Positions 6,521-57,850 of a DNA stretch of 64,000 nt are shown piece after piece. Position numbers and translations under genes: made by a program. The DNA comes from an uncultured Acidimicrobiaceae bacterium (GTDB lineage Bacteria > Actinomycetota > Acidimicrobiia > Acidimicrobiales > Ilumatobacteraceae). The stretch spans positions 98,807 to 162,806 of the forward strand of contig CAVSZY010000007.1 of NCBI GenBank assembly GCA_963732585.1, read 5' to 3'. The number at the start of each line of letters is the position of its first letter. Position 1 is the first letter of the stretch. The notes beneath the pieces are model-generated. The model searched no databases and was not told the origin of the DNA. It saw nothing but the letters and a program-made list of their open reading frames with translations.

Positions 6521-6550
6521 TCGCAGACAGGCCGGTAGGGTTGCGACCTG

Positions 6551-16250: not shown

Positions 16251-16763
16251 CTATCGAGCCGCGCCGCGCTCGAGTTCAGCGACGCGTCGTTCCAGGTTGA
16301 CCATCGCATCGGCGACATGATCGAGGATGGCTACGCGATCAAAGAGGGCGGCGACGACGTCGTTGAGTTGGCGCTCGTCGGCGGCCTTTTGGACCTCGAT
16401 GAGGTGGTGCACCTCATGTAGGGCGCGGGCGATATCGGTGCCGAGATTGCGCACTTGGTCGGCGAGTGGCGAGGTGTGGCGGCCGACGACTCGTCCCGCG
16501 GCGCGGTGCACGCTTGCCCCGCCCGGCACTTTTGAGCTGAGCGAGATATCGCCACCGAGGGCGCCGAGCGAATGCTCGACCGATTTCACTCGCCGGCCGA
16601 GTTCTGATGTGTTGAGCTCGCCACGATGCACAGCGGCCATGATCGTTTCGAACTCAGCTTCGAGCTGCGCTTCCAGTCCCGGCGGATAGCTGCCATTGGC
16701 GCGTCGCTGAGCCACCTCGGCCTGCATCTGTTCGACGAGTTGCTCGATATCTACTGCATCCAC
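16251..16763 (-). CDS. coiled-coil protein of unknown function
   Basis: Track ORF 16251..16901 trimmed to the GTG at 16763 to avoid overlap with wzt. IEQLVEQMQAEVAQRRANGSYPPGLEAQLEAEF and C-terminal heptad-like helix. Stop lies 2 nt before the GT4 start. Confidence 0.5.
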   Translation of the reverse strand: MDAVDIEQLVEQMQAEVAQRRANGSYPPGLEAQLEAEFETIMAAVHRGELNTSELGRRVKSVEHSLGALGGDISLSSKVPGGASVHRAAGRVVGRHTSPLADQVRNLGTDIARALHEVHHLIEVQKAADERQLNDVVAALFDRVAILDHVADAMVNLERRVAELERGAAR

Positions 16764-16851
16764 TCGGGCCCCATCGTTCGTGCTTGGTGAGCTCTGACGA
16801 CGGTAGCAGGTCGCAGTCTCTGGGTCATTGGACCCAGAGACTGCGGGGAGA

Positions 16852-18054
16852 TCACAGCAGGTTCCACTGTGGCCGCATGGTGACCAATCCCTGAGTTTCA
16901 TACGGCTTGCCGGACATCACATCGAAACGCAAGGCGAGATGGACGACGTCGTATTCATGCTGGCGATTGAAGTCGGTGATGCTGGTGTGCAGGTCGTAGG
17001 TGCCCGGCAGCAATGAAACATCGTCAAAGCGCACATCGACGTAACCGCTGTCGCTGAGGGCCTCCGGGATCAGACCGACATCACGGGTACACGGTGAGGT
17101 GACGACGGCTCCGCCGAGATGTTCGATTGTCACGCCGACAACTGGGCGAGGCACCGGCTGGTGGGCGCGGTAGTGCAATCGCAGCGTCATCGAGGCTCCG
17201 GTGCGAAATCGCTTGACCGGCGTGGGGTCGTCATCGAGGAGCATCTCGACCCGCTCGATCTGCACCTCACCGCTGCCACGCCTGACGCTGCCGTCGATGC
17301 TGCGGTCTCGGCCGCCGAGCATCATCTCGGTGTACGCCTCAACCAACTCCGACGGGTCGCCCTCACCCGTAATCACGCCATGAGTCAGCCAAATCGCCCG
17401 GTCGCACATGTTTTTGACGCTGCCGAGGTCGTGGGTGACGAGCACGATCGTGCGTCCGTCATTGCGAAAGTCGACAAACTTCTCCATACAGCGTTGCTGG
17501 AAGGTGACGTCGCCGACAGCCAGGATTTCGTCGACAATCAGCAGCCGGGGATCGACGTTGATCGCCACAGCGAAGGCCAGCCGTACGTACATGCCGCTGG
17601 AATAGGTCTTGACCGGTGAATCGATGAAGTTCTCCAGACCGGAGAACTCGACGATCTCATCGAAGCGGGCGGCGATGTCCTTGCGGCCCATACCAAGGAT
17701 CGCGGCGTTGAGGAACACGTTCTCGCGGCCCGACAGCTCGGGATGAAATCCTGCGCCAAGCTCCAATAACGCCGACATGCGTTTGTGCACCGTGACCGAA
17801 CCGCTGTTGGGCTGCAGGATCCCGGCCATGCACTTCAACAGCGTCGACTTGCCGGATCCGTTCTGACCGATGACACCGAACACTTCACCTTCGGTGACTT
17901 CGAAGGAGACATCACGCAGCGCCGTGAACTCGTTGAAGGTGTTGCGCCCACGGTTGGTCAGCAGCTGTTTGAGCGAGTTGGTCTTTTCGCTGTGCACGCG
18001 GAACGACTTGGTGACGTTGCGGACCTCGAGAGCGAGCTGCGAATTGGTCGCCAT
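16852..18054 (-). CDS. wzt: polysaccharide ABC exporter ATP-binding protein with C-terminal extra domain
   Basis: Trimmed to the ATG at 18054. Walker A GQNGSGKST, signature YSSGMYVRLAFA, Walker B LIVDEILAVGD, plus about 150 aa beyond the NBD. Confidence 0.9.
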   Translation of the reverse strand: MATNSQLALEVRNVTKSFRVHSEKTNSLKQLLTNRGRNTFNEFTALRDVSFEVTEGEVFGVIGQNGSGKSTLLKCMAGILQPNSGSVTVHKRMSALLELGAGFHPELSGRENVFLNAAILGMGRKDIAARFDEIVEFSGLENFIDSPVKTYSSGMYVRLAFAVAINVDPRLLIVDEILAVGDVTFQQRCMEKFVDFRNDGRTIVLVTHDLGSVKNMCDRAIWLTHGVITGEGDPSELVEAYTEMMLGGRDRSIDGSVRRGSGEVQIERVEMLLDDDPTPVKRFRTGASMTLRLHYRAHQPVPRPVVGVTIEHLGGAVVTSPCTRDVGLIPEALSDSGYVDVRFDDVSLLPGTYDLHTSITDFNRQHEYDVVHLALRFDVMSGKPYETQGLVTMRPQWNLL

Positions 18055-18056
18055 GG

Positions 18057-18854
18057 CTACATCTCCTCCGCGAAGCGTGGCGACAAACGCCCGAAAATCC
18101 ATGCTCCCAGAAAGAACATGCCAAAGGACAGCAACACCAGCTCCACGAGGCGTCCTGTGCCAGGCATACGCCCGTCGTACATGAGCTCGTGCGACGCGGT
18201 GATGAAACTTCCGGTCGGGCCATAATTGGCGATGTTCTTGAGCACATCGAGCTCCAATGTGGCCGGGAAGTAGATCACCGGGGTGGCGTAGAACAGGATC
18301 TGCGAGCCGATACTCCACAGGTAATTGACGTCGTGGTAAAAGACGTTGGCTGCCGACAATGCCAGTGCGACGCCAGCGGTGAACACCGCCAACAGCACCA
18401 TCAGCAAGAACATCACGGGTAGCCAGGGCAAGACCATCTGGCCGGCGACGAGCAGGGCGACACACAGCAGGGCGAGCTCGATCATCAGCGTGACGAACTG
18501 GGCGATGACCACCGAAAAGACGAGGTGCTCGTGTGGAAACTGGACCTTCTTGATCAGCCCCGCCCCTCCCTGAACATTGCCGATCGACACGCCGACGGTG
18601 ATCGAGAAAAAGTTGAACGGCAATAGGCCCGCCAAGAAGTACAGCGGAAAGCTCTTCAACCCGCTGGGGTCGCCGATCTGGGGCACCTGTTTGAAGATGT
18701 AGGTGAAGATGACCGAGAAGATCAACATCTGCGACAACGGGTTGAGCAAGCTCCACGCCCAACCGAGCACTGACTTCTTGTAGCGGGTGCGCAGCTCCTT
18801 CAACGACAGCAGATAGAGAAGGTTGCGGTGTGCAGCCGCCGTTCGCAAAGACAT
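18057..18854 (-). CDS. wzm: ABC-2 type polysaccharide exporter permease
   Basis: 265 aa; LKELRTRYKKSVLGWAWSLLNP ABC-2 N-terminal motif; six hydrophobic spans. Confidence 0.9.
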   Translation of the reverse strand: MSLRTAAAHRNLLYLLSLKELRTRYKKSVLGWAWSLLNPLSQMLIFSVIFTYIFKQVPQIGDPSGLKSFPLYFLAGLLPFNFFSITVGVSIGNVQGGAGLIKKVQFPHEHLVFSVVIAQFVTLMIELALLCVALLVAGQMVLPWLPVMFLLMVLLAVFTAGVALALSAANVFYHDVNYLWSIGSQILFYATPVIYFPATLELDVLKNIANYGPTGSFITASHELMYDGRMPGTGRLVELVLLSFGMFFLGAWIFGRLSPRFAEEM

Positions 18855-18978
18855 TGAGTCTGGATTCTACTGGCGCACGGGATGCGAAGACCGCGACGCT
18901 CGACGGCGACGTCAGATGACCGGCTCTGCCCGCCAGGCGTCACCAGTTCCCACTATCAGTGCAGATAGCATCGCTGGA

Positions 18979-19968
18979 ATGCCAAGCGCACTCATTACCG
19001 GTATCACTGGGCAGGACGGTCGATTCCTCGCCGAATTGCTCCACGAGAAGGGGTATAAGGTCTACGGCTTGCTCAAGGGGCAGAATAACCCGAAGAGCAC
19101 GCTGATTCGCGATGAGCTGCCCTTCGTCGAACTGGTGCAGGGCGACCTGTGCGACCTGCCGAGCCTGATTCACGCCGTCGAGTCGACGCAGCCGAACGAG
19201 GTCTACAACCTCGGGGCGATCTCGTTCGTGGCGATGAGCTTCAACCAGGCCGAGTTGACCGCCAACGTCACCGGGCTCGGCGTGATGCGCATGCTGGAGG
19301 CGATCCGTAACGTCGGCGGCAGCCAGAACAACCCGATCAAGTTTTACCAAGCCAGCTCCTCGGAGATGTTCGGCAAGGTCCGCGAGACACCGCAGACCGA
19401 AATGACGCCGTTCCATCCGCGCAGCCCATATGGCTGCGCCAAGGTCTTCGGCCACGACATCACCGTCAACTACCGCGAGAGCTACAACCTGTTCGCCTGC
19501 TCGGGCATCTTGTTCAACCACGAAAGCGAGCGTCGCGGCCTGGAATTCGTGACCCGCAAGATCACCAACGCCGTGGCCCGCATCAAGCTGGGTCTGCAGA
19601 GCGAACTGGTGTTGGGCGATCTCGAACCACGCCGCGACTGGGGTTACGCCGGCGACTACGTCAAGGCGATGTGGCTGATGCTGCAACAGCCCGAACCAGA
19701 GGACTACGTCGTGGCCACTGGCGAGACGTATCAGGTCAAGGAATTCGTTCGCCTGGCCTTCGAAGCGGCGGGTATCGACAACTGGCAGGACTACGTCCGT
19801 CAGGATCCGAAGTTCTTGCGTCCAGCGGAAGTCGATCTTCTGGTCGGCGACTCCACCAAGGCGCACACCAAGTTGGGCTGGAAGCGAGAGGTCTCGTTCC
19901 CCGAACTGGTCAACCGCATGGTGGCTAACGACCTGAAGGTCGAAGCCGCGGCGATGGACAGGGCGTAA
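18979..19968 (+). CDS. gmd: GDP-mannose 4,6-dehydratase
   Basis: Trimmed to the ATG at 18979 (MPSALITGITGQDGRFLAELL). SSSEMFG, SPYGCAKV, ILFNHESERRG motifs. Confidence 0.9.
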   Translation: MPSALITGITGQDGRFLAELLHEKGYKVYGLLKGQNNPKSTLIRDELPFVELVQGDLCDLPSLIHAVESTQPNEVYNLGAISFVAMSFNQAELTANVTGLGVMRMLEAIRNVGGSQNNPIKFYQASSSEMFGKVRETPQTEMTPFHPRSPYGCAKVFGHDITVNYRESYNLFACSGILFNHESERRGLEFVTRKITNAVARIKLGLQSELVLGDLEPRRDWGYAGDYVKAMWLMLQQPEPEDYVVATGETYQVKEFVRLAFEAAGIDNWQDYVRQDPKFLRPAEVDLLVGDSTKAHTKLGWKREVSFPELVNRMVANDLKVEAAAMDRA

Positions 19969-19973
19969 TTCCG

Positions 19974-20297
19974 ATGGCTGTCGACCAGACATCTGGTTCG
20001 CTCGACGCGGAACTGGAATCGCTGCGAGCTGAGGTGCGCCACCTCCGCGAGCTGGTCGGTCCAAGCGAGGAGTCGTACGCCAAGTTGCGCCTCGACGTCC
20101 TCGGCGCTCGCGACGCAGCGATCGGTGCCGAGTTGGAGGCTGGGCGGATCAAGGGCCGTGTGCTCGCCCTGGAAGCGGAAGTGACGCGTTTGCAGCGCGA
20201 TCAGACTTGGTTCCGTGAGCGAGTTGTGATGCAGATCAAGGGAGTGCGTCACAAGTCGCCGACCCTTGGCAAGGTCATCACCCGCCTCAGCCGGTGA
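19974..20297 (+). CDS. small coiled-coil protein with basic C-terminal tail
   Basis: 107 aa; LDAELESLRAEVRHLRELV...LEAEVTRLQRDQ heptads, tail KGVRHKSPTLGKVITRLSR. 5 nt after gmd and 7 nt before the GT2. Confidence 0.5.
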   Translation: MAVDQTSGSLDAELESLRAEVRHLRELVGPSEESYAKLRLDVLGARDAAIGAELEAGRIKGRVLALEAEVTRLQRDQTWFRERVVMQIKGVRHKSPTLGKVITRLSR

Positions 20298-20304
20298 GTT
20301 GTCG

Positions 20305-21900
20305 ATGAGCCCCCGATTCTCGATCGTCACTCCCGTCTATGATCCGCCTGCCGATGTCCTGCAGGAGATGATCGACAGCATTCGTCAGCAATCGTTCGCC
20401 GATTGGGAACTGCTGTTGATCGATGATTGTTCGCCGGGCGCTCACGTGTTGCCGATTCTGCGCCAGGCTGCGGCGTCGGACGCCCGAATCAAGGTCATCG
20501 TCCGCGAGCGCAACGGCGGCATCGTCGCTGCATCGAACGACGGCCTGGCGACAGCTACTGGCGAATTTGTCGGCCTGGTCGACCATGACGACACGATCGA
20601 GTGGCGGGCGCTCGAGGTGATCGACGAGTTCGCCAAGCAGTTCCCAGACATGGACTACAGCTACAGCGACGAAGATCAGATCACCCCTGATGGTCGCTAT
20701 GTCCACCCGTTTTACAAGCCGGATTGGTCGCCAGAACGACTACGAAGCCAGAACTACTGCAGCCACTTCTCGGTGTTTCGCAAGACGCTGCTCGACGAGA
20801 TCGGCGGCTTCCGCCAAGGATTCGACGGATCGCAAGATCACGACCTCACGTTGCGGGCCACCGAGAAAGCGCGCCGTGTCGTGCACATCCCTTGGGTGTT
20901 GTATCACTGGCGACAGCTGGCAACGTCGGTGGCCGGCGACCCCAACGCCAAACCATACGCCTATGAGGCTGGTCGCAAGGCGGTGCAAGAGCACTGTGAT
21001 CGAGTGGGCATCAAGGCCACCGTCGAGCTCAGCACACCGCTCGGCACCTACCGTGTTCGTCGAGCAATCGAGGGCGACCCGCTGATCAGTGTGATCATCC
21101 CGACGTGCGGCTCGATCGGGCGTCCGTGGGGCGTGGAACGCTGCTATGCCGTCGGAGCAATCGAATCGGTACGGGCACACACCAGTCGTCGGGTCGAATT
21201 CGTGCTGGTCGTTGATGATTGGACCGACCCTGCGCGGGTCGCAGCGATGAAACGGGCGGCGGGCGATTGCCCGGTCAAGGTCGTGTGGTTCACCGAGGAG
21301 TTCAACTTCAGTGCCAAGGTCAACCTCGGTGCCGTGCACGCCAGCGGCGACCTGTTGCTGTTCCTCAACGATGACATCGAAGTGATCACCGATGAGTTCC
21401 TCGATCCGCTGATTCCGCTGGCGCTCGAACCAGGTGTGGGTGCGGTCGGCTGCAAACTGTTCTTCGCCGATGGGCGACTGCAACACGCCGGTCACGTCTA
21501 CAACGGAAACCCATTCCACATCTTCTTCCGCTGGTCTGGCGACGAGTTGGGGATCGCCGCGCTGCTCTGCGTCGAGCGTGAGGCCATCGGCGTCACGGCG
21601 GCGTGCATGATGATCACCCCCGAGCACTTCGAGCAGGTCGGCGGGTTTTCGACGTTGTTCCCGGCCAACTTCAACGATGTCGATTTCAATCTCAAGTTGA
21701 ACCACATCGGCCTGCGTCAGATCTGGACGCCGTGGAGCGAGTTGTATCACTTCGAGTCGGCGTCACGGAACCCAACGGTGACCGACGAAGAGCATGAGAT
21801 GCTGCGCATCCGCTGGAACGAGCGCCTGATCGGCGACCCGTACTACAACCACAACCTTGCACCGCACCGCGACGATTGGGTCGAGAAGGGTCTGCGCTAG
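20305..21900 (+). CDS. two-domain family-2 glycosyltransferase
   Basis: Trimmed to the ATG at 20305. Domain 1 FSIVTPVYDPP..LLLIDDCS..VDHDD; domain 2 ISVIIPTCG..LVVDDW..FLNDDIE. Confidence 0.8.
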   Translation: MSPRFSIVTPVYDPPADVLQEMIDSIRQQSFADWELLLIDDCSPGAHVLPILRQAAASDARIKVIVRERNGGIVAASNDGLATATGEFVGLVDHDDTIEWRALEVIDEFAKQFPDMDYSYSDEDQITPDGRYVHPFYKPDWSPERLRSQNYCSHFSVFRKTLLDEIGGFRQGFDGSQDHDLTLRATEKARRVVHIPWVLYHWRQLATSVAGDPNAKPYAYEAGRKAVQEHCDRVGIKATVELSTPLGTYRVRRAIEGDPLISVIIPTCGSIGRPWGVERCYAVGAIESVRAHTSRRVEFVLVVDDWTDPARVAAMKRAAGDCPVKVVWFTEEFNFSAKVNLGAVHASGDLLLFLNDDIEVITDEFLDPLIPLALEPGVGAVGCKLFFADGRLQHAGHVYNGNPFHIFFRWSGDELGIAALLCVEREAIGVTAACMMITPEHFEQVGGFSTLFPANFNDVDFNLKLNHIGLRQIWTPWSELYHFESASRNPTVTDEEHEMLRIRWNERLIGDPYYNHNLAPHRDDWVEKGLR

Positions 21901-21903
21901 GCC

Positions 21904-24165
21904 GTGGAGGTGCCCGCAGCGCCGCGCCCCCGTGTGTGCGTGGTCGTGCCGCACGGCACATGGCTGCTGGAACCGCTCGCCGATGCGCTCCGAGACACTG
22001 GCGCGGCGTCAGACATCGTCGCAATCTGGGCAGGTGACCCGCACTCGCGCCCGGTGCTGAGCGAGCTTGGGATCGATTGGTGCCAGCCCGACGAACCCAC
22101 GGGGATCGGTTGGAATCGATTGCTGGCCGCCCTGCCCAGCGCCCATTACGAATGGGCAGTGGCCTGCGCCGCGGTGACCGAGATGTTGCGAACCGATCCG
22201 ACGCCGGTCGTCGTGCTGCGAGCCGGCTCCGTCGGTGTTCTCGGCGCGTTGAACGTGCTCGTCAGTGATCACCCTTTGACCCTCATCGAGCGGGTGAGCG
22301 ATCCCGCCGAGTTGGGCAACGATGGGCTTGCTCCCAACGAGGCAGATCTCATCCGACGGGGCCGCTTCATCGAGTCCCTTGCCTGTTTCGGTCCCGGTGC
22401 TGGCGCGGCGTTGTCCTGGCTCGGCGAGCAGTTGACGATTCATGCCGATGTTGCCGTCGGGGCCTTTTTGGAACGGTGCGCGGCGCGTTTTGGCTGGGCC
22501 TCACCACCGGGCGGATCGGTCTTGGTCGCTGGCTGGATGGCAACCCTCGAACGCCCGCCCGCGGCGGTCGATATCGACAACCTCGATCGTCAGCATCCGT
22601 GGTGTTTCCGCTTCGAAGGCGGCCCGGCGCGAATTCGGCTGTCGCAGCACCCAGCAATGGCGGCGGCGGTGGCCGATGCCGTCGAGCAATGCCAAGGAAT
22701 GCGCACGCAGCTACGGCTTCCTGGAGGGTCGGACGTCGATCCGGCGATCCGCTCGCTGGTCGGCGAGGCGATCGTTCTCTGGCGACGTGGCGAGGGCGAC
22801 CTGCCGCCGCAACCTTGGTCTGACAAGCATTCCGAGTTCGTTGCCTGGCTGGAGTCACCGCCGCCAGCAACCGTCGACATTGGCCGTTATTGGCTCGCGC
22901 TACGCGAGACACGACCTGACCTGCTCTCGGCGTTTTCCCACGCCCATGGACGCGACGGCGCCGCCTTTCGCCGATGGATCGAGGATTCGTGGCGCATAGA
23001 GAATCGCCCGCCGCTGATTCGCTCGACAAACGCGACCTTGGAACCGATTCGCTCGACGACGTTCGATCCCCACGGTCTGAACGTGCTCGGTTACCTCGAC
23101 TACGACCAGAGCCAAGGTCACATCGCCCGCCAGATCGTGGCCGCCCTGCAACAGGCGACGTGTCCGGTTCGCCAACTCAACCATCACCGCAGCCTCGGCG
23201 CGCCGCGTGCCTCCAGAGTCACCGATCCACGCCAGGCGATCTACAAGACCAACGTCGTCGTCGTCAACGCCGACCAGTTCGAATTCGTCGTCGCCGATCA
23301 CGCCAAGGGACTCCTCGCCGACCGGCATACGATCGGCTACTGGTTCTGGGAGTTGGAGCATGTGCTTCCACGCATGATCGCGGCCACGGGTTTCGTGGAC
23401 GAAATCTGGGCGGGCTCACAGTTCATCACTGACGCCTTCGCCGCGGTGACCAGCACGCCCGTTCGTCGGGTCAGCCTGCCGATCGAGGAACCGCAGCCAT
23501 CGCTGTTGGGTCGGGCCGACTTCAACCTGCCCGAGGACCGCTTCGTCTTCCTCTGTACCTTCGACCAATACAGCGTGCCGGAGCGCAAGAATCCATTCTC
23601 CGTGATCCGCGCATTTCGCCAGGCGTTTGCCGATGGCCAAGGCCCAATCCTGTGGATCAAGACGCTCAACGGCGATCGTGCGTGGCGTCAGCATGAGCGT
23701 TTGCTGCTGGCCGCCGCGGGGCGAAGCGACATCATCGTGTGGGACAAGCATCTCAGCCGCAGCGATCAGATGGCGGTGCTCAACACCGCCGACTGTTTGG
23801 TGTCGCTGCACCGTTCCGAGGGCCTCGGGCTGCACTGCGGCGAGGCGATGTGGCTGGCCAAGCCGGTGATCGCCACTCGCTATTCCGGAAACCTCGACTT
23901 CATGACCGACGACAATTCGGCGTTGATCGACTTCACGATGATCCCTGTCTCGCACGGCGATGGCATCTATCCGCCCGCGGCCTCGTGGGCTGACCCGTCG
24001 ATTGACCACGCCGCCGAGTGGATGCGCCGCCTGGCGCAGGACGCAGGGTTGGCGAGGAGACTTGGTCTCGCCGGGCAGGCGACGATGCGCGCCCAGCCCT
24101 CGCTCGCCGAGGCCGGGCGAATGATGGCTACGCTCGCTGGCGTGCACGGCACCTGGACAGACTGA
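21904..24165 (+). CDS. large glycosyltransferase: unknown N-terminal about 400 aa plus C-terminal GT4 domain
   Basis: 753 aa from a GTG. C-terminal LVSLHRSEGLGLHCGEAMWLAKPVIATRYSGNLDF GT-B motif; N-terminal half unrecognised. Confidence 0.75.
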   Translation: MEVPAAPRPRVCVVVPHGTWLLEPLADALRDTGAASDIVAIWAGDPHSRPVLSELGIDWCQPDEPTGIGWNRLLAALPSAHYEWAVACAAVTEMLRTDPTPVVVLRAGSVGVLGALNVLVSDHPLTLIERVSDPAELGNDGLAPNEADLIRRGRFIESLACFGPGAGAALSWLGEQLTIHADVAVGAFLERCAARFGWASPPGGSVLVAGWMATLERPPAAVDIDNLDRQHPWCFRFEGGPARIRLSQHPAMAAAVADAVEQCQGMRTQLRLPGGSDVDPAIRSLVGEAIVLWRRGEGDLPPQPWSDKHSEFVAWLESPPPATVDIGRYWLALRETRPDLLSAFSHAHGRDGAAFRRWIEDSWRIENRPPLIRSTNATLEPIRSTTFDPHGLNVLGYLDYDQSQGHIARQIVAALQQATCPVRQLNHHRSLGAPRASRVTDPRQAIYKTNVVVVNADQFEFVVADHAKGLLADRHTIGYWFWELEHVLPRMIAATGFVDEIWAGSQFITDAFAAVTSTPVRRVSLPIEEPQPSLLGRADFNLPEDRFVFLCTFDQYSVPERKNPFSVIRAFRQAFADGQGPILWIKTLNGDRAWRQHERLLLAAAGRSDIIVWDKHLSRSDQMAVLNTADCLVSLHRSEGLGLHCGEAMWLAKPVIATRYSGNLDFMTDDNSALIDFTMIPVSHGDGIYPPAASWADPSIDHAAEWMRRLAQDAGLARRLGLAGQATMRAQPSLAEAGRMMATLAGVHGTWTD

Positions 24166-24176
24166 CAGGGGACCTC

Positions 24177-24458
24177 ATGGGACGGCTTCGACAACGCGTT
24201 GCGTGGATTATCAAGGGAGAAAATTTCACTAAGAGTGCATTAACCTCCTATGCTGAAGACCTGCGGGCCTTGCAGCAGAAGGTGGCGCGCCTTGAAGCGA
24301 GCGTCGAGAGTTTGTCCGACACCCGAGATCAGCGAGCGGAACAGGCCCAGCAATCGCTCATCGCTGTACGCAGCGAAGTCGGCGATCTGGCGACGCAGAT
24401 GCAAACGGTGGCCCGCGATCTCGGGGATCGCATCGGCTCATTGTCGCAACGACTCTAG
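24177..24458 (+). CDS. small coiled-coil protein
   Basis: 93 aa from the ATG at 24177; LRALQQKVARLEASVESL...DLATQMQTVARDLGDRIGSL. Confidence 0.5.
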   Translation: MGRLRQRVAWIIKGENFTKSALTSYAEDLRALQQKVARLEASVESLSDTRDQRAEQAQQSLIAVRSEVGDLATQMQTVARDLGDRIGSLSQRL

Positions 24459-24489
24459 ATCGGGTCTTGATCTGCCGATATCGGCAGTG

Positions 24490-27156
24490 ATGTTGAAATC
24501 GTTCTTCTCTCGCACGCTCGCCGTTGCACTGATCGTTGCCTCGCTGACTATCGCCGATCCCGCAGGACTACCCCCCGAGGCCGATGCCTGGGTATCGGGT
24601 ACGCCGACAGCGATGGGGATGGTGCTCTCGCCCGACGGGTCGCTGTCGAGCTCAGGAGATTTTGCTACCGACACCTTCTCCGATCCCTGGGATTTCTCCA
24701 ATGCGGACGACGTCATCCCGGTGAACCACGTCGGCGTGGGTTTCGCCGACGGCGTGTCGCTGAACAACGGCGTGCTCTCCGTTGCCTCGCGCAACGGCAC
24801 CGAGATCCGACTGCTGATGCGCTGGCCAGAGGTACTGCCTTGGGGACACGACGGCTGGGCCCATCCGATCGATGCTGGCCGATACACCCAGGCGACCTTT
24901 CGGATCTATAGCGACACCACGTTGTACATGGGTGTTCGATTTCAGATGGCCAATGGTAAATGGGGAATGATCCCCTTCACGCTCAATCCCGGCTGGTCGA
25001 CGCAACAGTTCAACCTGCTCGATCGCAGTCTCTATCCGGCCTCGCACAACCCCGACGGGGCGACCTGGAGCGGCCCGATCGTTCGTTTCGAACTGTTGCG
25101 TGGCGGCGCTGCGGGGGGCAACCCGGCGGCCAACATCCAGCTCGACTGGGCGCGAGTGCATCGTGCTGACGTGCCCCGCAGCCCCGTCGCTGGTGTTCCT
25201 GTGCCTGTGGTTCTGACCCCGAACATCGAGGGTGGCGCCGACTACGCCAGTGAGGTCCGCGGCAATCCGTGGGACTTCAACAGCCTCAACGACGTCGGCG
25301 AAACCCACGACGTCAGCGGGCTGGCGATCAACAACGGCGAACTGAACGGCGTCAGCACGGCGAATGACCCGTTCGTCGAGTTGCCGACCAGCGCGGCGAT
25401 CAACGGCGACCGCTATCACCGCTTGACCCTCGACGCCTGCTACGGCGGCGGCTTCAGCCTCGATGACGTGCCGGGCGCCGGGATGGTCGGGCGCATGGCC
25501 TGGATGTCGAAGGTCTGGGGTAACTGGACCGAGACCCAGGACTTCGTGGTCTTCCCCGGTTGTCGGCGGATGACCTTGGACATGGCGACGACACCGGCGT
25601 CGGCGATCCACGACGAAAAGACGCTGGTACCGACCGGTTGGCGCGGCGTGATGCCCACGCGATTGCGCTTCGATCTCAACGAAGACCGTGGCTCCCGGGC
25701 CTTCACGATTCGTGAGGTTCGGTTGGCCGACGACGCTGCGTTCGCCAGTACCTACGACATCACCTATCTCGACGCCGCTGGTACGCCAGGTGCTGTGGCT
25801 GACATTTACGCCACCACCACTCCGGGTGCCTATAACGGGCAGACGATCGCTCGCGATCGCCCGGTCAGCGGCGGTGTCAACAGCTTTTCCTGGAATGGGC
25901 GTGACGTCAGCGGCGCGCTGATGCCCAATGCCACCTATTGGGTGTACGTGGTGATGCGTACTCCGAGCGCCGGAAACGGCGTCGGCTATGCCACTGGCCC
26001 GCTGCGCAAGGAGGCTGCCGTTCCCCCGACACCGAGCACCTATGTCCCGGTGAGCCCGATGCGTTTGCTCGATACCCGCACGGGCGAGGGCGGCAATATC
26101 TCGCCGCTCGGCCAAGGCGGGATCACCGAACTCGACGTCACCGGTGTCGGCGGAGTGCCTGAAACCAATGTGACCGCCGTGGTGCTCAACGTCACGGTCA
26201 CGGGCCCGAGCCAGGGTGGTTGGATCACCGCCTGGCCATCCGGTGAGGCCCAACCAAACGTCTCCAATCTCAACTTCTCCGCCGGGCAAACGGTGCCCAA
26301 CCTGGTCACCGTCAAGACCGGGGCCAACGGCAAGATCAATCTGTTCAATTCGACCGGGGCGAGCCACGTGATTGCCGATATCGCTGGTTACTACACCTCG
26401 AAAGCGGCGGTTTCCGGGCAATTCAAGGCACTGGCGCCAGCGCGGGTGCTCGACACCCGTAACGGCACGGGAACCGGCGGTAACCGGGCTCCGATCGGGT
26501 CGGGGGCGACGCTCAATCTCAACGTGCTCGGCGTTGGTGGTGTGCCGACATCGGGGGTCAGTGGCGTTGCGCTCAACGTCACGGTCGATGGGCCCTCAGG
26601 TGCCGGGTTTCTGACCGTCTGGCCGAGCGGCGAGCCGAGACCCAATGCCTCGACGCATAACTTCTCCCCGGGTGGCACCGTTGCCAACATGGTGCTGGCC
26701 AAGGTCGGAGCAAACGGCCAGGTGAGCATCTTCAACTCAACCGGTTCGACGCCGGTCATCGCCGACGTCATCGGCTATTTCGGTTCGAGCGGCGGCACCT
26801 TCATCCCGGTGGCGCCCACTCGCCTGGTCGATACCCGATCGGGGATTGGGGCACCGCTGGCTCCGATCGGCCCCGGCGCCACATTGCGCGCCCTGATCGG
26901 CAACGGGGCACCGATTCCGCCTTCGGCCAAGGCTGTGATCGTCAACATCACCACGGTCAATTCGACCGCCGGCGGCTTCATCACCGCCTGGCCGAGCGGG
27001 GCGACGATGCCGCTGGCCTCGACCCTCAACCCGCAGCCCGGCTCAGCGGTGCCCAACCAGGCGTACCTGCTGCTCGGCACCGGCGCCTCGATCGACATTT
27101 TCAACGCCGCCGGGTCAAGCGATGTGATCGTCGACGTCTTCGGCTACGTGAGCTGA
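24490..27156 (+). CDS. secreted multidomain protein: 2x DPWDF module, FlgD-Ig-like segment, 3x DTR-WP repeat
   Basis: Trimmed to the ATG at 24490 (MLKSFFSRTLAVALIVASLTIA signal-like). Duplicated DPWDFSN/NPWDFNS modules, FSWNGRDVSG..ATYWVYVV, then three repeats of about 120 aa. Confidence 0.7.
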   Translation: MLKSFFSRTLAVALIVASLTIADPAGLPPEADAWVSGTPTAMGMVLSPDGSLSSSGDFATDTFSDPWDFSNADDVIPVNHVGVGFADGVSLNNGVLSVASRNGTEIRLLMRWPEVLPWGHDGWAHPIDAGRYTQATFRIYSDTTLYMGVRFQMANGKWGMIPFTLNPGWSTQQFNLLDRSLYPASHNPDGATWSGPIVRFELLRGGAAGGNPAANIQLDWARVHRADVPRSPVAGVPVPVVLTPNIEGGADYASEVRGNPWDFNSLNDVGETHDVSGLAINNGELNGVSTANDPFVELPTSAAINGDRYHRLTLDACYGGGFSLDDVPGAGMVGRMAWMSKVWGNWTETQDFVVFPGCRRMTLDMATTPASAIHDEKTLVPTGWRGVMPTRLRFDLNEDRGSRAFTIREVRLADDAAFASTYDITYLDAAGTPGAVADIYATTTPGAYNGQTIARDRPVSGGVNSFSWNGRDVSGALMPNATYWVYVVMRTPSAGNGVGYATGPLRKEAAVPPTPSTYVPVSPMRLLDTRTGEGGNISPLGQGGITELDVTGVGGVPETNVTAVVLNVTVTGPSQGGWITAWPSGEAQPNVSNLNFSAGQTVPNLVTVKTGANGKINLFNSTGASHVIADIAGYYTSKAAVSGQFKALAPARVLDTRNGTGTGGNRAPIGSGATLNLNVLGVGGVPTSGVSGVALNVTVDGPSGAGFLTVWPSGEPRPNASTHNFSPGGTVANMVLAKVGANGQVSIFNSTGSTPVIADVIGYFGSSGGTFIPVAPTRLVDTRSGIGAPLAPIGPGATLRALIGNGAPIPPSAKAVIVNITTVNSTAGGFITAWPSGATMPLASTLNPQPGSAVPNQAYLLLGTGASIDIFNAAGSSDVIVDVFGYVS
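26041..27153 (+). repeat. three tandem protein-coding repeats of about 118-127 aa (26041-26421, 26422-26799, 26800-27153)
   Basis: Each unit reads P.R.(L/V)DTR ... GVGGVP ... A(V)(V/A)LNVT ... G(W/F)(I/L)T(A/V)WPSG ... N ... NS(T/A)G ... DV.GY(Y/F/V). Confidence 0.8.
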
Positions 27157-28636: not shown

Positions 28637-28745
28637 ACGATGACCTTAGTAAGCAACGATGGAAGTGCCGAGTGATCGCCAAGAAACCACGACATGAAAT
28701 CTGCGCTGCGTATGCTCAAAGGCGCATGAAGGAAACACGGCGAGG

Positions 28746-29468
28746 ATGATCACCAACGACCGCGGCGAACAGCGTTCCGTCAGCGTCATCTTGCCGACCT
28801 ACAACGAGGCCGACAGCATCCGTTCCTGCATCCGCGGCTTTGAGCGGCTCGGCATCGTCGACGAGATCATCGTCGTCAATAACAACGCGCACCCGGACAC
28901 CTCCGGCAACGTCGCTGGCACATCGGCGATCGAAATCTTTGAACCGACGCAGGGATACGGCGCTGCGATTCAGCGTGGGCTGCGGGAGGCAACGAGCGAC
29001 CTGTTGGCCATCTGCGAACCCGACGGCACCTTCGAACCAGCTGACCTGCTCAAGTTGTTGCCGTTCCTCAGCGACTGCGACTTTGTCGTCGGCTCGCGCA
29101 CCGTCAACGACTTCATCTACGCCGGTGCCAACATGGGCCGTTTCCTGCGCTGGGGAAATTGGGCAGTGGCCAAGCTGACCGAGGTGGTCTACGGCTCCGC
29201 CTACCTCAGCGACGTCGGCTGCACCTTCCGCGTCATCACCCGCCCGACCTACCACCAGCTGGAGCCCGGGTTTCGTATCGCCGGGTCAAGCTTCGGGTTC
29301 GAGATGTTGCTACTGGCGATTCGTCAGCGGGTCAGCGTCGTGCAACTCCCTGTGCGTTATTACCCACGCGTCGGCGAGTCGTCGGTCACCGGTAGCCGCG
29401 TCAAGGCCGTGCGCCTCGGTTTGGAAATGATCGTGCTGATGATGCGAATGCGTTTCAGACGGCGATGA
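28746..29468 (+). CDS. GT2 polyprenyl-phosphate sugar synthase-like glycosyltransferase (DPM1/GtrB type)
   Basis: 240 aa; VSVILPTYNE, IIVVNNN, ICEPDGTFEP, GSRT motifs. Confidence 0.8.
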   Translation: MITNDRGEQRSVSVILPTYNEADSIRSCIRGFERLGIVDEIIVVNNNAHPDTSGNVAGTSAIEIFEPTQGYGAAIQRGLREATSDLLAICEPDGTFEPADLLKLLPFLSDCDFVVGSRTVNDFIYAGANMGRFLRWGNWAVAKLTEVVYGSAYLSDVGCTFRVITRPTYHQLEPGFRIAGSSFGFEMLLLAIRQRVSVVQLPVRYYPRVGESSVTGSRVKAVRLGLEMIVLMMRMRFRRR

Positions 29469-30124
29469 GCGCAACGGCCGACTCCCACGGGGAGTACTTC
29501 CAGTCACGCTTCACTCACGACGACAATCGCCTCGTCGTTTGGCGTCATGTCGTTGCCTATCTCGGGGCGTTGATCGACAGGCAGCATCGTTTCGTCGAAC
29601 TCGGCGCAGGCTATTGCGAGGTCAGCCACTGCCTCGGTGTCGACGGCCCCCCGATCACGGTCGTCGACCTGCGTAGCGACTTGGCCGAGTGGGCCCCCAT
29701 CGGTGCCGATGTGCTGATCGGTAGTTGCACCGACCTGTCGATGATCGCCGACGGGTCGGTCGGCTCCGTGTTCGCCAGCAACCTGCTGGAACACCTCAGC
29801 AAGCCCGACGCCCGCGAGACCTTGCGCGAGGCCCATAGGGTGCTGCGCCCGGGCGGCCACTTCATTGCCATGCAACCCAACTTTCGGCTCGCACCGCGAC
29901 GCTATTTCGACGACTTCACGCACGAGACGATCTTCACCGACGAGAGCCTCAACGATCTGATGATCTCCTGCGGGTTTGAGATCGCCCGTCGAGAAAACCG
30001 TTTTCTGCCGCTGTCGATGAAGTCGCGAGGCTCGTCATTGACGTTCCTCGTGCCCTGGTATCTGCGTTCACCGATTCGCCCCTTCGCCGGGCAAATGTTG
30101 ATCGCCGGTCGTCGCCCCAGCTGA
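29465..30124 (+). CDS. class I SAM-dependent methyltransferase
   Basis: 219 aa; FVELGAGYC, SNLLEHLSKPD, LRPGGHFIA. ATGA overlap with the preceding GT2. Confidence 0.75.
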   Translation: MSATADSHGEYFQSRFTHDDNRLVVWRHVVAYLGALIDRQHRFVELGAGYCEVSHCLGVDGPPITVVDLRSDLAEWAPIGADVLIGSCTDLSMIADGSVGSVFASNLLEHLSKPDARETLREAHRVLRPGGHFIAMQPNFRLAPRRYFDDFTHETIFTDESLNDLMISCGFEIARRENRFLPLSMKSRGSSLTFLVPWYLRSPIRPFAGQMLIAGRRPS

Positions 30125-31048
30125 TTCGTGGGGTGACGCGGCGGGTGAGGTTGCCAGGCGCCATAACCGTCGGCTGCGACCAAGCTGTGCTGATCCGAGC
30201 GCGCCGACAAGTTGCACGCCGATGTGGGCACTGACCATGCGATGTCGACGGGCGACGCGAGCCGAGCGCGGCCAGGCGGCGATCGCCGCTGCGTCCGCTA
30301 GCTGGTGGTACAACGCCAGCTCCTCCTCGAAGCGCCGCGTCCCACGCGTCGACGTCGCGCTGGCGCTCGAACCGTGGCGTCGATAGTCGTAGAGCTCTTG
30401 GCGCACGACACCGATTTCACCGCCGCACAGCAGCGTGCGGGCGATCAGGTCGAGGTCGACAACCATCGACCAACGAGGATCGAACGGGCGGGCGACGCCC
30501 GGCACGTCGGGCAACAGCGAGCGGCGATAGGTCAACGTCGGGCTGTAGATCGTGTTGTTGGCTAACAGCGCAGCGAGACCGTCGTCGCCGCGCAGCAGGT
30601 AATCGCCCGCTGGGCGCCGGGCGCAGCGCTTGACCACATCGGCGATCGTGTGCCGTGGGCGATCGTTCGCGCCGATGACGTTGACCCCGGTGGCGACCAT
30701 CGCCGCCCTCGGCCAACGTTGCAACGCCGCGGTGATCACCCGCAGATAGTCGGGGCGCAGCCGGTCGTCGGCGTGCAGCAGCGTCACCACATCGCTGTCC
30801 GCTGCATCCAGAGCTCGATTCCAGTTGCCCCCGATACCCACACGGTGATCGTTGCGCAGCACCTTCAGGCGCCCGTCGACGTGGTCGGCGAGCACGACCG
30901 CCGCTGGCTCAGCGGCAGCGTCGTCGATGACGATCAACCGCCACCGTGGGTCGGATTGGGCGAAGACGCTGTCGACCGCCTGGCGCAGAAAGCCGGGCTG
31001 TCGGCAGTAAGGCACGGCGATCGTCGGGATGTCAGCATCGCCAGGCAC
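30068..31048 (-). CDS. family-2 glycosyltransferase
   Basis: 326 aa from a GTG; IAVPYCRQPGFLRQAVDSVFAQSD, LIVIDDAA, LLHADD motifs. The 3-prime end overlaps the convergent MT by 57 nt. Confidence 0.75.
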   Translation of the reverse strand: MPGDADIPTIAVPYCRQPGFLRQAVDSVFAQSDPRWRLIVIDDAAAEPAAVVLADHVDGRLKVLRNDHRVGIGGNWNRALDAADSDVVTLLHADDRLRPDYLRVITAALQRWPRAAMVATGVNVIGANDRPRHTIADVVKRCARRPAGDYLLRGDDGLAALLANNTIYSPTLTYRRSLLPDVPGVARPFDPRWSMVVDLDLIARTLLCGGEIGVVRQELYDYRRHGSSASATSTRGTRRFEEELALYHQLADAAAIAAWPRSARVARRHRMVSAHIGVQLVGALGSAQLGRSRRLWRLATSPAASPHESAGATTGDQHLPGEGANR

Positions 31049-31071
31049 CCCTTAAAGCTACGCTGACGGTC

Positions 31072-31689
31072 GTGAACGTGGCGACCGACGGTGGCCCGGC
31101 GCGCCGGGCCACTGCGCAACAGCAAGCCTATGCCGAACGGTTGCGACGGCTCTCACGCCGGGGCGGAGTGCTCCGTCGGCTGTTCGAACCGCAGCGCCTC
31201 TATCGCCGCAGAATGCGCACCATGCGGCCGGGGTTCATGCTCGACGTCGGCTGTGGGATCGGTCGAACCCTGTCGTTCGTCGACGGCCACGGTGTCGGGA
31301 TCGACACCAACCCGGCCTGCGTCGCGGCTGCCCGTCGGCGAGGATTCGTGGCGCTGTCGCCGGATGACTTCGGCGATGATCGTCGCTCGTTCGACTCGGT
31401 GGTCTTCGCTCATGTGCTCGAGCACCTCGGGTTCGACGATGCCGTCGAAATTGTGCGTCGCTACGCGCCGCGGGCCCTCCCCGCAGGTCAGGTGATCATC
31501 ATCAGCCCGCAGCAGCGCGGGCAGCGCAGCGATCCGACGCACCTCACGCTGATCGGCAGCGACGAACTCGTGGAACTCGCCCGACGTTGCGATCTGCGCC
31601 TTGAGTCGGTGCGCTCGTTTCCCGTGCCCCGTCGCTGGGGTGCCTGGTTTACGCACAACGAGACGATCGCCGTGCTGCGCCGCTCCTGA
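31072..31689 (+). CDS. class I SAM-dependent methyltransferase
   Basis: Track ORF 30946..31689 trimmed to the GTG at 31072; MLDVGCGIGRT, FAHVLEHLGFDD. Confidence 0.65.
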   Translation: MNVATDGGPARRATAQQQAYAERLRRLSRRGGVLRRLFEPQRLYRRRMRTMRPGFMLDVGCGIGRTLSFVDGHGVGIDTNPACVAAARRRGFVALSPDDFGDDRRSFDSVVFAHVLEHLGFDDAVEIVRRYAPRALPAGQVIIISPQQRGQRSDPTHLTLIGSDELVELARRCDLRLESVRSFPVPRRWGAWFTHNETIAVLRRS

Positions 31690-31700
31690 GGTTGCTGAAT

Positions 31701-33626
31701 TTAGGGTTGGGTCGGCCAGGGCAACGTCGGATAGTGGGCCCTGATCGCCGCGATCGCCTCATCCGTGGCCAGATTTGTCAGCGCCAGCATCGAGCTCGCT
31801 TGCACTCGATAGCGCCCGAGAATTTGCGCCACGAAGACGGCGTGGCGATCCTCGGCGACGAGTCGCAGCCACAGATCCCAGTCTTCCCAGCCGAAGATTG
31901 AGTCGTCGTCGGTGCGGTATCCGCCGAGGTCGCGCCACGTGTCGCGTCGGAACATCGCCTGAGCATCGATGTAGTTCGCCGCGCAGAGCCGCAGCGGATC
32001 CCAGGCCAAAGCGCTGCGCAGATTGCGGGCGGCGCCGAAATCCTCAAGGATGCTGTAGGCCGCGGCCGCCGCCAGGTCGCCATCGAGTGCATCGGCGAGC
32101 CTGCGCAAACACGTCGGATAGACGAGGTTGTCGGCATCGATGACCATCACCTTGTCGGCTCGGGCCACAGCAAATCCGCTGTTGCGCGCCGCCGCCAGGC
32201 CCTCGTTGGCGTTCTTGGCCAACAGCCGAATCGCCGCCGTCGGGTGTCGGTTGATGTAGCGACGCACGACGTCGCGGCTTGAATCGGTGGCGTGGTCCTC
32301 GACGACGACCACCTCGATCTCGATACCTTCGCTGGCCAGCACGCTGTCCAAGGTCTCGGTGACCAGATCGGCGTAGTTATACAGCGTGACGACGACGCTG
32401 ACCTCGGGTCGCCGGGCTTCGTAGCCATCGGAGTCGATGATCTCGATGAACTGAAAATCTCCATGGCGCAACATGCAGCGCGCTGCATCGAGCCGACGCA
32501 GGGCGGCATTCTCGGCCAGAGCGAGGCGCTTGGCCTTTGTCTGGATGTCGAGGTATGGGCGAAACACCGGCATTCGTTGCGGCGGTGGCACCAGCGTCGC
32601 TCCGAGGCGCCACAGGCCGCGTAGGTGTCCCGGCTCGGCGACGTGTTGTGCGAGCCGGGGGAGCATCGTGGCCTCGATGCGATCGAGGATTGCGGGCAAT
32701 GTCGTCGCCAATGCCAGATCGATCATCACGGCTTGGCGGGCGGCATCGGCGAGGCGCTGGCGACGCTGCGGATCGGCGAGTAAGCCCTCGACTGCGCTCG
32801 CCATGGCGTCGATCGTCGCTTCCACAAAATGAATACCGGGGACAAGCGGGGCGTGACCATGGGATGGTTCGGTGACGACGACGCAGCCGTTGGCCATCGC
32901 CTCGATCATCCGCGCCCATTCGAAATAGGGAGGCGGGTTGGCTCCAGGTGGCAGATGAAGCGAACGGTCGCGGTGGATGTTGAGCAGGATCGACGACTGT
33001 GCCAGAAAGCGGAACTTGTCGTCGCCGAACAGCAAACCAGGCGTCTGCGGCCCGACCGGGCGATCAAATGTGAACAGCCGCAGCTCACTGTTGTGGCGAG
33101 ACAACGCCGGGGCCAACTCGGCGAGGGCGGCGGCGCGCCGCGGGTCGAGGCCGCCCATGAAGACGACATCGAGATGCCGATCGATCGGCTGTTGCCAAGG
33201 GGCATTGGCCACGAGCGACGGGACGCCACCGAGCGTCAGACGCTCGGCAGCGACCTTGACGTCTCGCAGTGCGTCGACCCCGTGAGGGCTGATATCGAGC
33301 GTGTGCAACGCCCGGCGGCAAACGTCGACGGAGAGGTGAAACCACGGGGTGTCCGGCTGCTCTGTACACACCGGAATCGAGGCCGCCGCGGCGCGTTGCA
33401 AATCGGCCTTTGGCGCTCGATACAACTCGAAAAACTCGTGCGGGGCAACGACGAGGTTGATGGCACCGTCGACGGCGGGGAGACGGTCATCGACCACGGT
33501 TGCTGTGCGCCCGGCCAGGGTCGCGGCCTCGGCTATCCACCCAGCGATGTCGCGCATGAACCCGTTGCCCGTGGCTGCAACAAAGACCTTGACTGGGGCG
33601 GGGTGACCGCCGCCGGGGGCCGCCAT
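31701..33626 (-). CDS. bifunctional-looking glycosyltransferase: N-terminal GT-B-like half plus C-terminal GT2 domain
   Basis: 641 aa. FEWARMIEAMANGCVVVTE (GT-B-like) in the first half; VSVVVTLYNY..VVVVEDHATD..VIDADN GT2 motifs in the second. Confidence 0.75.
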   Translation of the reverse strand: MAAPGGGHPAPVKVFVAATGNGFMRDIAGWIAEAATLAGRTATVVDDRLPAVDGAINLVVAPHEFFELYRAPKADLQRAAAASIPVCTEQPDTPWFHLSVDVCRRALHTLDISPHGVDALRDVKVAAERLTLGGVPSLVANAPWQQPIDRHLDVVFMGGLDPRRAAALAELAPALSRHNSELRLFTFDRPVGPQTPGLLFGDDKFRFLAQSSILLNIHRDRSLHLPPGANPPPYFEWARMIEAMANGCVVVTEPSHGHAPLVPGIHFVEATIDAMASAVEGLLADPQRRQRLADAARQAVMIDLALATTLPAILDRIEATMLPRLAQHVAEPGHLRGLWRLGATLVPPPQRMPVFRPYLDIQTKAKRLALAENAALRRLDAARCMLRHGDFQFIEIIDSDGYEARRPEVSVVVTLYNYADLVTETLDSVLASEGIEIEVVVVEDHATDSSRDVVRRYINRHPTAAIRLLAKNANEGLAAARNSGFAVARADKVMVIDADNLVYPTCLRRLADALDGDLAAAAAYSILEDFGAARNLRSALAWDPLRLCAANYIDAQAMFRRDTWRDLGGYRTDDDSIFGWEDWDLWLRLVAEDRHAVFVAQILGRYRVQASSMLALTNLATDEAIAAIRAHYPTLPWPTQP

Positions 33627-33628
33627 CG

Positions 33629-33937
33629 TTAGAACCGCTTGAACATGACGCGCATCGCTTTCCGCGGTGCCCGACCGAGCTTGGCGACCCCACGTTTGGC
33701 GACAGCAGCTTTGGCCGGGTGGTTCTTGACATCGGCAGCCATCGAACGCAACAGCGCATGGCGGCTCATCGCCGTTGGCAAGGCCTCGGCCAGCTGGCGA
33801 ACCTCGGTGCGCCTGGCCAGGGCCTCGACACGGAGTTCATCGATCGTCGCCTCGGCGAGCTCCAGGCGGCGGCGCAACTCGGCGTTCTCGGAGGCGTGAC
33901 GGGCGAGTTGTTCAGCGAGCGGGTTGGCTGGGTTCAT
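33629..33937 (-). CDS. small coiled-coil protein with basic C-terminal tail
   Basis: 102 aa; AELRRRLELAEATIDELRVEALARRTEVRQLAEAL, tail KRGVAKLGRAPRKAMRVMFKRF. Stop lies 2 nt before the GT start. Confidence 0.5.
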   Translation of the reverse strand: MNPANPLAEQLARHASENAELRRRLELAEATIDELRVEALARRTEVRQLAEALPTAMSRHALLRSMAADVKNHPAKAAVAKRGVAKLGRAPRKAMRVMFKRF

Positions 33938-56957: not shown

Positions 56958-57121
56958 CGAACGATGCGATGACAATCTCGACCGGATAGCAGGCATAGAC
57001 GGTTTTGCAAGCTGTGTCGAGCGAGCAGGAATACCACCAAGATCGCTGATGCACTTGCTATACGTGGTTGTTGTGTGGTAGAAATCGTAGTTAGAGGGTT
57101 TCTTGACGGATTGGTGGGTCT

Positions 57122-57693: not shown

Positions 57694-57850
57694 TGTAGAG
57701 CGCCAGGTTCGTTGAGGATGGTGGGGCTGGTTGGTGACAGGTGTGGTGAGGATGGTTGGGGTGGTGGCGGTGAGACTGGTCGCGCAAGGACCCTCCCGTT
57801 GATTCACCTGGCAGTGAACGGGAGGGCCCTTTGGGCGCCCGGAGGCACTG

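Follow-up and report, generated by a model that had tools for sequence, protein, structure and literature searches.

What do four small helical proteins contribute to a bacterial glycan-synthesis locus when the gene of each lies hard against that of a large glycosyltransferase? The question arises in a stretch of 64,000 nucleotides (nt) from an uncultured Acidimicrobiaceae bacterium (assembly GCA_963732585.1, contig CAVSZY010000007.1, positions 98,807 to 162,806 of the forward strand), hereafter the window, where a first-pass annotation made from the letters alone picked out four short open reading frames (ORFs), here cc1 to cc4, and proposed them as coiled-coil partners, one per transferase, recalling the chain-length rulers of O-antigen synthesis. 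The four are real conserved genes, each fixed beside the same partner gene, and by sequence comparison they represent four unrelated all-helical families found in the Wzm/Wzt glycan clusters of Acidimicrobiia and of some Microbacteriaceae. As to function, the balance of probability tips slightly towards non-catalytic adaptors that would oligomerise or tether their transferases, leaving chain length to be set by a coiled-coil methyltransferase encoded nearby at 12767-13939.

Are the four frames genes at all? Their coordinates, and the gaps of 2, 5 and 7, 11, and 2 nt between them and their neighbours, were confirmed from the sequence, and each is identified by its ORF, its homologues and its synteny. 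The gene cc1 (16251..16763, minus strand) encodes a 170-residue acidic all-helical protein and runs from a GTG start to a TAG stop 2 nt before the GTG of the transferase gene GT4b. The plus-strand cc2 (19974..20297; 107 residues, two heptad helices and a basic tail) starts 5 nt past the gmd stop and ends 7 nt ahead of the ATG, at 20305, of a transferase with two GT2 modules (dual-GT2), while cc3 (24177..24458, plus strand), a 93-residue coiled-coil protein, starts 11 nt past the stop of a 753-residue transferase (GT753). On the minus strand again, cc4 (33629..33937; 102 residues, a heptad coiled coil and a basic tail) has a start that overlaps the end of a DUF2142 gene by 26 nt and a TAA stop 2 nt before the ATG of a 641-residue transferase (GT641). 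Long shadow ORFs are common in high-GC genomes, and overlapping ORFs on the opposite strand are present here, as would be expected were the four chance ORFs or untranslated spacers. However, that explanation has next to no probability: the proteins are conserved across many diverged genomes with family-specific invariant residues, their codon-position GC (GC2 0.42-0.49, GC3 0.64-0.78) is of coding type and matches the genome's coding pattern, and gene callers on other assemblies predict these same small genes.

Each small ORF has a conserved family to itself, made up of small proteins that stand alone, with homologues at 41-83% identity. A Pfam scan of cc1 to cc4 gave only sub-threshold matches to assorted coiled-coil families, and an NCBIfam scan gave none except one far-sub-threshold SMC-like match for cc3. 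Some homologues in the cc4 and cc2 families are annotated at source as “chromosome segregation ATPase”, “FtsB” or “DUF342 coiled-coil”, and we read both these annotations and the sub-threshold Pfam matches as a sign of coiled-coil-like sequence. Paralogy among the four was considered and rejected, BLASTP and profile-profile comparison being unconvincing (hhalign probabilities of 3% and 25%). No match to cc1, cc2 or cc4 exceeds 196 residues, and no match to any of the four families is fused to a transferase.

The idea that stand-alone small helical proteins are each tied to one transferase gene is borne out by related genomes, where the adjacency survives differing flanks and is kept across diverged Acidimicrobiia. 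The nearest relatives of the window are metagenome-assembled genomes of Acidimicrobiia, for the most part Ilumatobacteraceae and unclassified Actinomycetota; 50 related loci were collected by way of the 753-residue transferase, and further independent contigs were compared. The cc4 family (89 homologous clusters, 92-135 residues) is the partner of GT641 (31701..33626, minus strand), a dual transferase with GT1-like and GT2 modules assigned by Pfam and synteny, whose matches in the PDB are GT2 enzymes. In all 18 loci that have a GT641 orthologue cc4 lies immediately upstream of it, as it also does in L062, L063, L065 and L066. In the same loci cc4 is 49-63% identical, compared with 56-64% for GT641 and 36-44% for GT753, so that cc4 is as conserved as its partner and more so than GT753. 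Within GT641 itself, residues ~360-385 link the two transferase modules by a short heptad-scoring stretch (TKAKRLALAENAALRRLDAARCMLRH; coil score 1.29, z=3.7).

The pairing of cc2 with the dual-GT2 transferase (20305..21900, plus strand; two Glycos_transf_2 stretches in Pfam, and synteny) is kept as well. The family comprises 66 clusters of 101-168 residues, one of them from Pontimonas sp. (Microbacteriaceae), and the pairing holds even there. The two genes follow one another with a 4-nt overlap in L059-L064 and L066, and in the same order in the four closest loci, L001, L003, L004 and L006. In L065, where the dual-GT2 enzyme is 45% identical, the ORF upstream of it encodes 122 residues and retains the LVGPSE..Y motif. 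The cc1 family is smaller (12 homologous clusters, 149-196 residues, all stand-alone) and heads an operon of two transferases, GT4b (15166..16248, minus strand; Pfam Glycos_transf_1 and synteny), its immediate partner, and GT4a (13961..15169, minus strand; Pfam GT4 domains and synteny). The order cc1-GT4b-GT4a, with a 4-nt overlap, recurs in five contigs (L051, L053, L054, L056 and L057) whose upstream genes all differ.

For cc3 (~17 representative clusters of 82-100 residues in an exhaustive HMMER search) the partner is GT753 (21904..24165, plus strand), which has a GT4-like C-terminal domain in Pfam and an N-terminal ~550 residues without Pfam assignment. A sequence search of GT753 against the PDB found no relative, and the protein is at most 57% identical to its versions in the closest relatives. 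This partner, too, keeps its neighbour: of 34 Acidimicrobiia loci, 33 have a cc3 homologue whose start lies between -38 and +38 nt from the GT753 stop, the sole exception being L016, where it lies 3.5 kilobases (kb) downstream. In other phyla only the C-terminal domain of GT753 is common and cc3 is absent. Two candidate fusions of cc3 (1482 and 1034 residues) were rejected, since they gave either no single aligned stretch or six short ones and have repetitive N-terminal sequences. A separate observation comes from Rhodanobacter sp., where a plus-strand ORF of 168 residues with a coil score of 1.63 (L044, ~1300-1800) starts 37 nt past a transferase whose likeness to GT753 is confined to the C-terminal domain, possibly a comparable arrangement in a gammaproteobacterium.

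One contig of 1.1 megabases, L066, carries cc2-dualGT2-GT753-cc3 together with a cc4-GT641 pair running divergently. Among the called genes of related contigs the junction between small gene and transferase is usually a 4-nt stop/start overlap, an arrangement characteristic of genes that are translationally coupled and of subunits produced in a set ratio, and such tight or overlapping junctions suggest that the small proteins are produced in step with their partners. The phrase “one per transferase” goes too far, however, since at least five other transferase genes of the locus lack a small partner and cc1 heads an operon of two. A fifth family of partners may exist elsewhere: L051 (5545-6225, minus strand) and L053 (7198-7863, minus strand) encode Pfam-less proteins of 226 and 221 residues whose genes have a 4-nt overlap with the start of a GT4 gene, and a C-terminal stretch of the L053 protein (residues 179-218) scores as coil.

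How far are these proteins coiled coils? The helical and heptad character of the small proteins is evident, to unequal degrees. A COILS-like score was computed for all 414 six-frame ORFs of at least 60 residues in the window; only its ranks and its z-scores against shuffles (28-residue window) are trusted. The top five scores belong to the methyltransferase at 12767-13939, cc4, cc3, cc2 and the long form of cc1, and the coiled-coil signal of the window is therefore concentrated in the glycan locus. The heptad character attributed to all four by the first-pass annotation is strong in cc4 (z=5.5) and cc3 (score 1.69, z=4.8; a heptad stretch of ~60 residues, about 16-76), weaker in cc2 (z=2.1) and slight in cc1 (z=0.4), where only 21-residue stretches give a signal, in three short segments. 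An AlphaFold2 model of cc1 has five helices at moderate confidence (mean predicted local distance difference test score, pLDDT, of 67.8), and Foldseek against the PDB returned nothing for it below E=0.4; its conserved motifs are GDYPxGLEEQLEAEF and ADERQL. The cc2 protein has two heptad segments of ~30 residues with an invariant Gly-Pro turn (LVGPSEESY) between them, within the conserved motif LVGPSEESYxKLRLDVLGARD, whereas cc3 is marked by Trp10, Gly14 and a DDLGDR motif and shows insertions and deletions in mid-coil within its family.

The most telling detail comes from cc4. Its AlphaFold2 model (mean pLDDT 84.6) has a 51-residue helix, residues 6-56, followed by three short helices, and Foldseek against the PDB found nothing for it below E=6. 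In the family columns the core positions keep an unbroken 3-4 spacing over residues 11-56, with Asn18 in 60 of 62 sequences and an invariant Arg42; in leucine zippers a conserved core Asn fixes register and oligomer state. Invariant residues outside the core (Glu20, Arg23, Arg24, Arg43 and Arg47) and a conserved C-terminal half (PTAMSRHAL, HHPDK, KLGRAPRK) are more than a passive spacer would need and hint at a surface for binding. The two basic tails that had been described as similar, those of cc2 and cc4, are alike in charge and not in sequence: the last 25 residues have a median net charge of +7 in cc2 and +9 in cc4, while the remainder of each protein is neutral or acidic. Across the cc2 family the tail charge runs from +5 to +10, the charge being kept while the sequence varies. 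The proposal that the tails are amphipathic holds for the last 12 residues of cc2, whose hydrophobic moment exceeds that of shuffles (p=0.005), and fails for cc4.

Could the small proteins themselves be the rulers, one per transferase, as a distributed version of the WbdD or WbbB type? They are coiled-coil proteins of a Wzm/Wzt cluster whose Wzt has a carbohydrate-binding module, and cc3 does vary in length in mid-coil. In the literature, however, the ruler is a terminator carried by a long coiled coil that doubles as the scaffold for the polymerase (PMC11231755). The coils here are short, ~45-60 residues, falling well below an extended coil of the order of at least 100 (~11-56 in cc4, ~16-76 in cc3), and among the family members inspected no gap interrupts those of cc2 and cc4. 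Neither cc1 to cc4 nor their similar-sized homologues carry a terminating domain on the same polypeptide. With short coils, no terminator domain and constant coil length in cc2 and cc4, the defining features of a ruler are lacking, and the role first suggested for these proteins is very unlikely. Every characterised system has its terminator on the ruler protein itself (PMC11231755), and this cluster encodes a candidate protein of that build.

That protein is the methyltransferase at 12767..13939 (plus strand), identified by its Pfam domain and its coil score and characterised by a long N-terminal coiled-coil, Ala-rich helical region. Its probable start is Met13 at 12803, from which a basic N-terminal segment (MARSLPSLFRRM) leads into a helical region of ~150 residues and then a C-terminal class I methyltransferase domain (residues ~200-311 in Pfam). 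No other scored ORF of the window matches its coil score of 2.06 (z=7.8), which makes it a fifth coiled coil, one that the first-pass annotation had passed over; its gene neighbours that of a Wzt with a C-terminal carbohydrate-binding module. Homologues in L053, L056 and L057 lie convergent to GT4a and have pre-domain regions of 144, 163 and ~214 residues, the longest with tandem REHAEAA-type repeats. Coiled coil and enzyme domain thus stand in one protein whose helical region varies in length, and by analogy with known systems the methyltransferase is a candidate for the classical terminator and ruler of the cluster. The notion that the cluster lacks a classical ruler is not supported, a candidate being at hand in the protein with the top coil score and a variable helical region.

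If the ruler is elsewhere, what would the small proteins do? We propose that each serves a single transferase, or a single transferase operon, as its dedicated non-catalytic subunit. For cc4 and cc3, oligomerisation of the transferase would come from a short parallel coiled coil; in cc2 and cc4 the basic tail would attach electrostatically to an anionic membrane or a lipid-linked acceptor. Each transferase would in this way be tethered by its small partner to a membrane-associated assembly complex. The methyltransferase would set chain length and termination while its coil organises the complex, and the carbohydrate-binding module of Wzt would read the cap that it adds. The adaptor reading is preferred because of the fixed pairing with polymerase-type, often two-module transferases, and because a coil suited to oligomerisation, invariant residues outside the core and basic tails of conserved charge point the same way. 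Binding of the small proteins to their transferases, their binding to the membrane and the division of labour with the methyltransferase are what we infer from these features. The tight synteny, the overlapping junctions and the want of a catalytic domain would also suit folding or stability chaperones, or regulators of the adjacent transferase, that have no scaffold or membrane role. We think this rather unlikely, as conserved basic tails and a canonical oligomerising coil favour localisation or assembly.

Precedent for a coiled-coil recruiter is at hand. The coiled-coil protein of known systems is associated with the membrane and serves as a scaffold to which polymerase modules are recruited; how these modules are split among polypeptides varies (PMC11231755). 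WbdD of Escherichia coli O9a and Klebsiella pneumoniae O3 acts as terminator and ruler and brings in the polymerase WbdA; its coiled coil is accompanied by a basic or amphipathic element close to the membrane, the transferase it recruits is soluble and multi-module, and it works in an ABC-transporter-dependent pathway whose Wzt has a carbohydrate-binding module, as here (PMC11231755). The proteins cc2 and cc4 resemble the membrane-proximal C-terminal part of WbdD minus its catalytic head. Unlike WbdD, the small proteins are without kinase and methyltransferase domains, their coil is much shorter, no sequence relationship is detectable, and there are four separate proteins, each bound to a different transferase gene. 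The more probable counterpart of WbdD in this cluster is the methyltransferase, although its coil is N-terminal whereas that of WbdD is C-terminal. In WbbB of K. pneumoniae O12 and in ORF6 of serotype O7 a single polypeptide unites the terminator with a coiled coil and a pair of transferase modules (PMC11231755). In ORF6 of O7 the coiled coil precedes GT2-GT2, an order to which that of cc2 and dual-GT2 corresponds; here coil and transferase are separate polypeptides, and a fused homologue was not found among the matches.

Two further comparisons come from outside these pathways. GpsB and DivIVA are small coiled-coil proteins of Gram-positive bacteria that bind the membrane and dock envelope-synthesis enzymes. 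Their genes are not known to lie next to those of their clients, whereas each small family here is locked to one transferase gene, and with cut-offs of E<=0.1 for Pfam and E<=0.01 for NCBIfam no DivIVA domain was matched in cc1 to cc4. In split transferases of the Alg13/Alg14 type the catalytic subunit is soluble and is recruited by a small partner that anchors it to the membrane, and a small protein from an adjacent gene that takes a soluble transferase to the membrane, as proposed here, would be analogous. However, Alg14 is half of a GT-B fold rather than a coiled coil, the predicted structures of cc1 and cc4 are all-helical, and no Alg14 domain was matched in cc1 to cc4 in Pfam. Rv3780, considered as a small protein beside the mycobacterial wzt, was set aside as the proteasome activator Bpa, which is unrelated. 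For GpsB at least, the designation “small coiled-coil protein” is that of the literature (PMC10936418).

Several observations weigh against the adaptor reading. Paralogues of GT641 and of the dual-GT2 enzyme, ~38-39% identical, occur in Ilumatobacteraceae loci without a small partner, and the GT753 of Pontimonas has none either; the small proteins would therefore serve only certain enzymes. The cc4 tail, which is Gly/Pro-rich, shows no significant amphipathicity against shuffles, and its target may be something other than the membrane. No basic tail is present in cc1, and with its weak heptad signal one mechanism may not fit all four. Finally, the sequence occurs only in metagenomic runs and at a low share, the labelled ones being from freshwater sediment, and none of the runs was identified as RNA.

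Could all the coils meet in a single assembly? A bolder form of the adaptor reading would bring all four small proteins together with the methyltransferase's N-terminal coil in one hetero-oligomeric coiled-coil hub that positions every polymerase-type transferase. This is distinctly unlikely; if true, the hub would be a non-covalent, modular counterpart of the single-polypeptide WbbB and ORF6 of O7, in which exchanging a transferase together with its adaptor as a cassette rewires the glycan product. Current models of ABC-transporter-dependent glycans come almost entirely from Gram-negative O antigens and feature one coiled-coil terminator or scaffold, and to these the actinobacterial system adds four helical partners without a catalytic domain, each tied to one transferase. 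Should they prove to be adaptors, they would show a route by which soluble transferases without anchors join the complex in these bacteria, would give a role to four new protein families so far nameless and without a model, and, as transferase-plus-adaptor cassettes, could matter for rebuilding such pathways in other hosts.

The setting of these genes is a single glycan-synthesis locus that, by Pfam content, spans ~1 kb to 36 kb of the window, whose G+C content is ~64%. It holds sugar-nucleotide enzymes, at least nine cytoplasmic transferases, Wzm, Wzt, a GDP-mannose dehydratase, two methyltransferases, two DUF2142 membrane proteins and a secreted protein of 888 residues, and the gene set is that of an ABC-transporter-dependent pathway. 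Wzt (16852..18054, minus strand) joins an ABC-transporter ATPase to a C-terminal carbohydrate-binding module (Pfam ABC_tran and Wzt_C), its in-frame ATG at 18054 being preceded by a GGAGGAG motif. The same combination of domains recurs in related loci, where Wzt positions were taken from the Pfam labels of called genes, and the Wzt_C module is consistent with a glycan chain bearing a terminal cap. The permease Wzm (18057..18854, minus strand) is identified by its homologues, 42-79% identical in related loci, where the syntenic genes are ABC2_membrane. The secreted protein (24490-27156, plus strand; a signal peptide and no Pfam family) is encoded after cc3, which is thus followed by something other than a transferase gene. 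Its true start is the ATG at 24490, and the 968-residue ORF that overlaps cc3 is only an upstream extension. In most related loci this protein is 33-63% identical and often directly follows cc3, and by eye its C-terminal third shows three repeats starting P(V/A)xPxRL(L/V)DTR.

A hairpin with a perfect 15-bp stem and a 4-nt loop (16812..16845, minus strand, found in the sequence) lies in the spacer directly after the wzt stop and before cc1; a 97-nt stretch there folds at -46.8 kcal/mol (z=-5.1), and the hairpin has no T-run. A terminator reading was rejected for want of that T-run, and a scan found neither terminator nor promoter at the site; the hairpin might act as an actinobacterial type of factor-independent terminator, or else affect RNA stability. 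At least two genes of the window look broken. In argJ (41787-42989, minus strand) an in-frame TGA at 42378-42380 and garbled sequence just upstream of it, after PNMAT, point either to a pseudogene with a local double frameshift or to an assembly error. Pyruvate dehydrogenase E1 (38755-41062, minus strand) is split into two overlapping ORFs in different frames (Transketolase_N at 39845-41062, PDH_E1_M at 38755-39996), which suggests a frameshift. Small indel errors in the assembly are therefore possible, and the exact 2-7 nt spacers at the small-gene junctions should not be over-read.

Four large ORFs without a Pfam family (446-562 residues) lie in the left part of the glycan locus among transferase and sugar-nucleotide genes, at 5687-7027 (minus), 8048-9736 (plus), 9691-11214 (minus) and 11150-12757 (plus), and a further Pfam-less ORF of 430 residues occupies 56954-58246 on the minus strand. 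Strong GC skew (+0.23) and AT skew (-0.19) mark 56-58 kb, just upstream of a transposase that combines an rve integrase core with a C-terminal Mu-transposase domain; this gene and the AAA_22 ATPase gene that follows it (together 58498-60680, plus strand) point to a mobile element.

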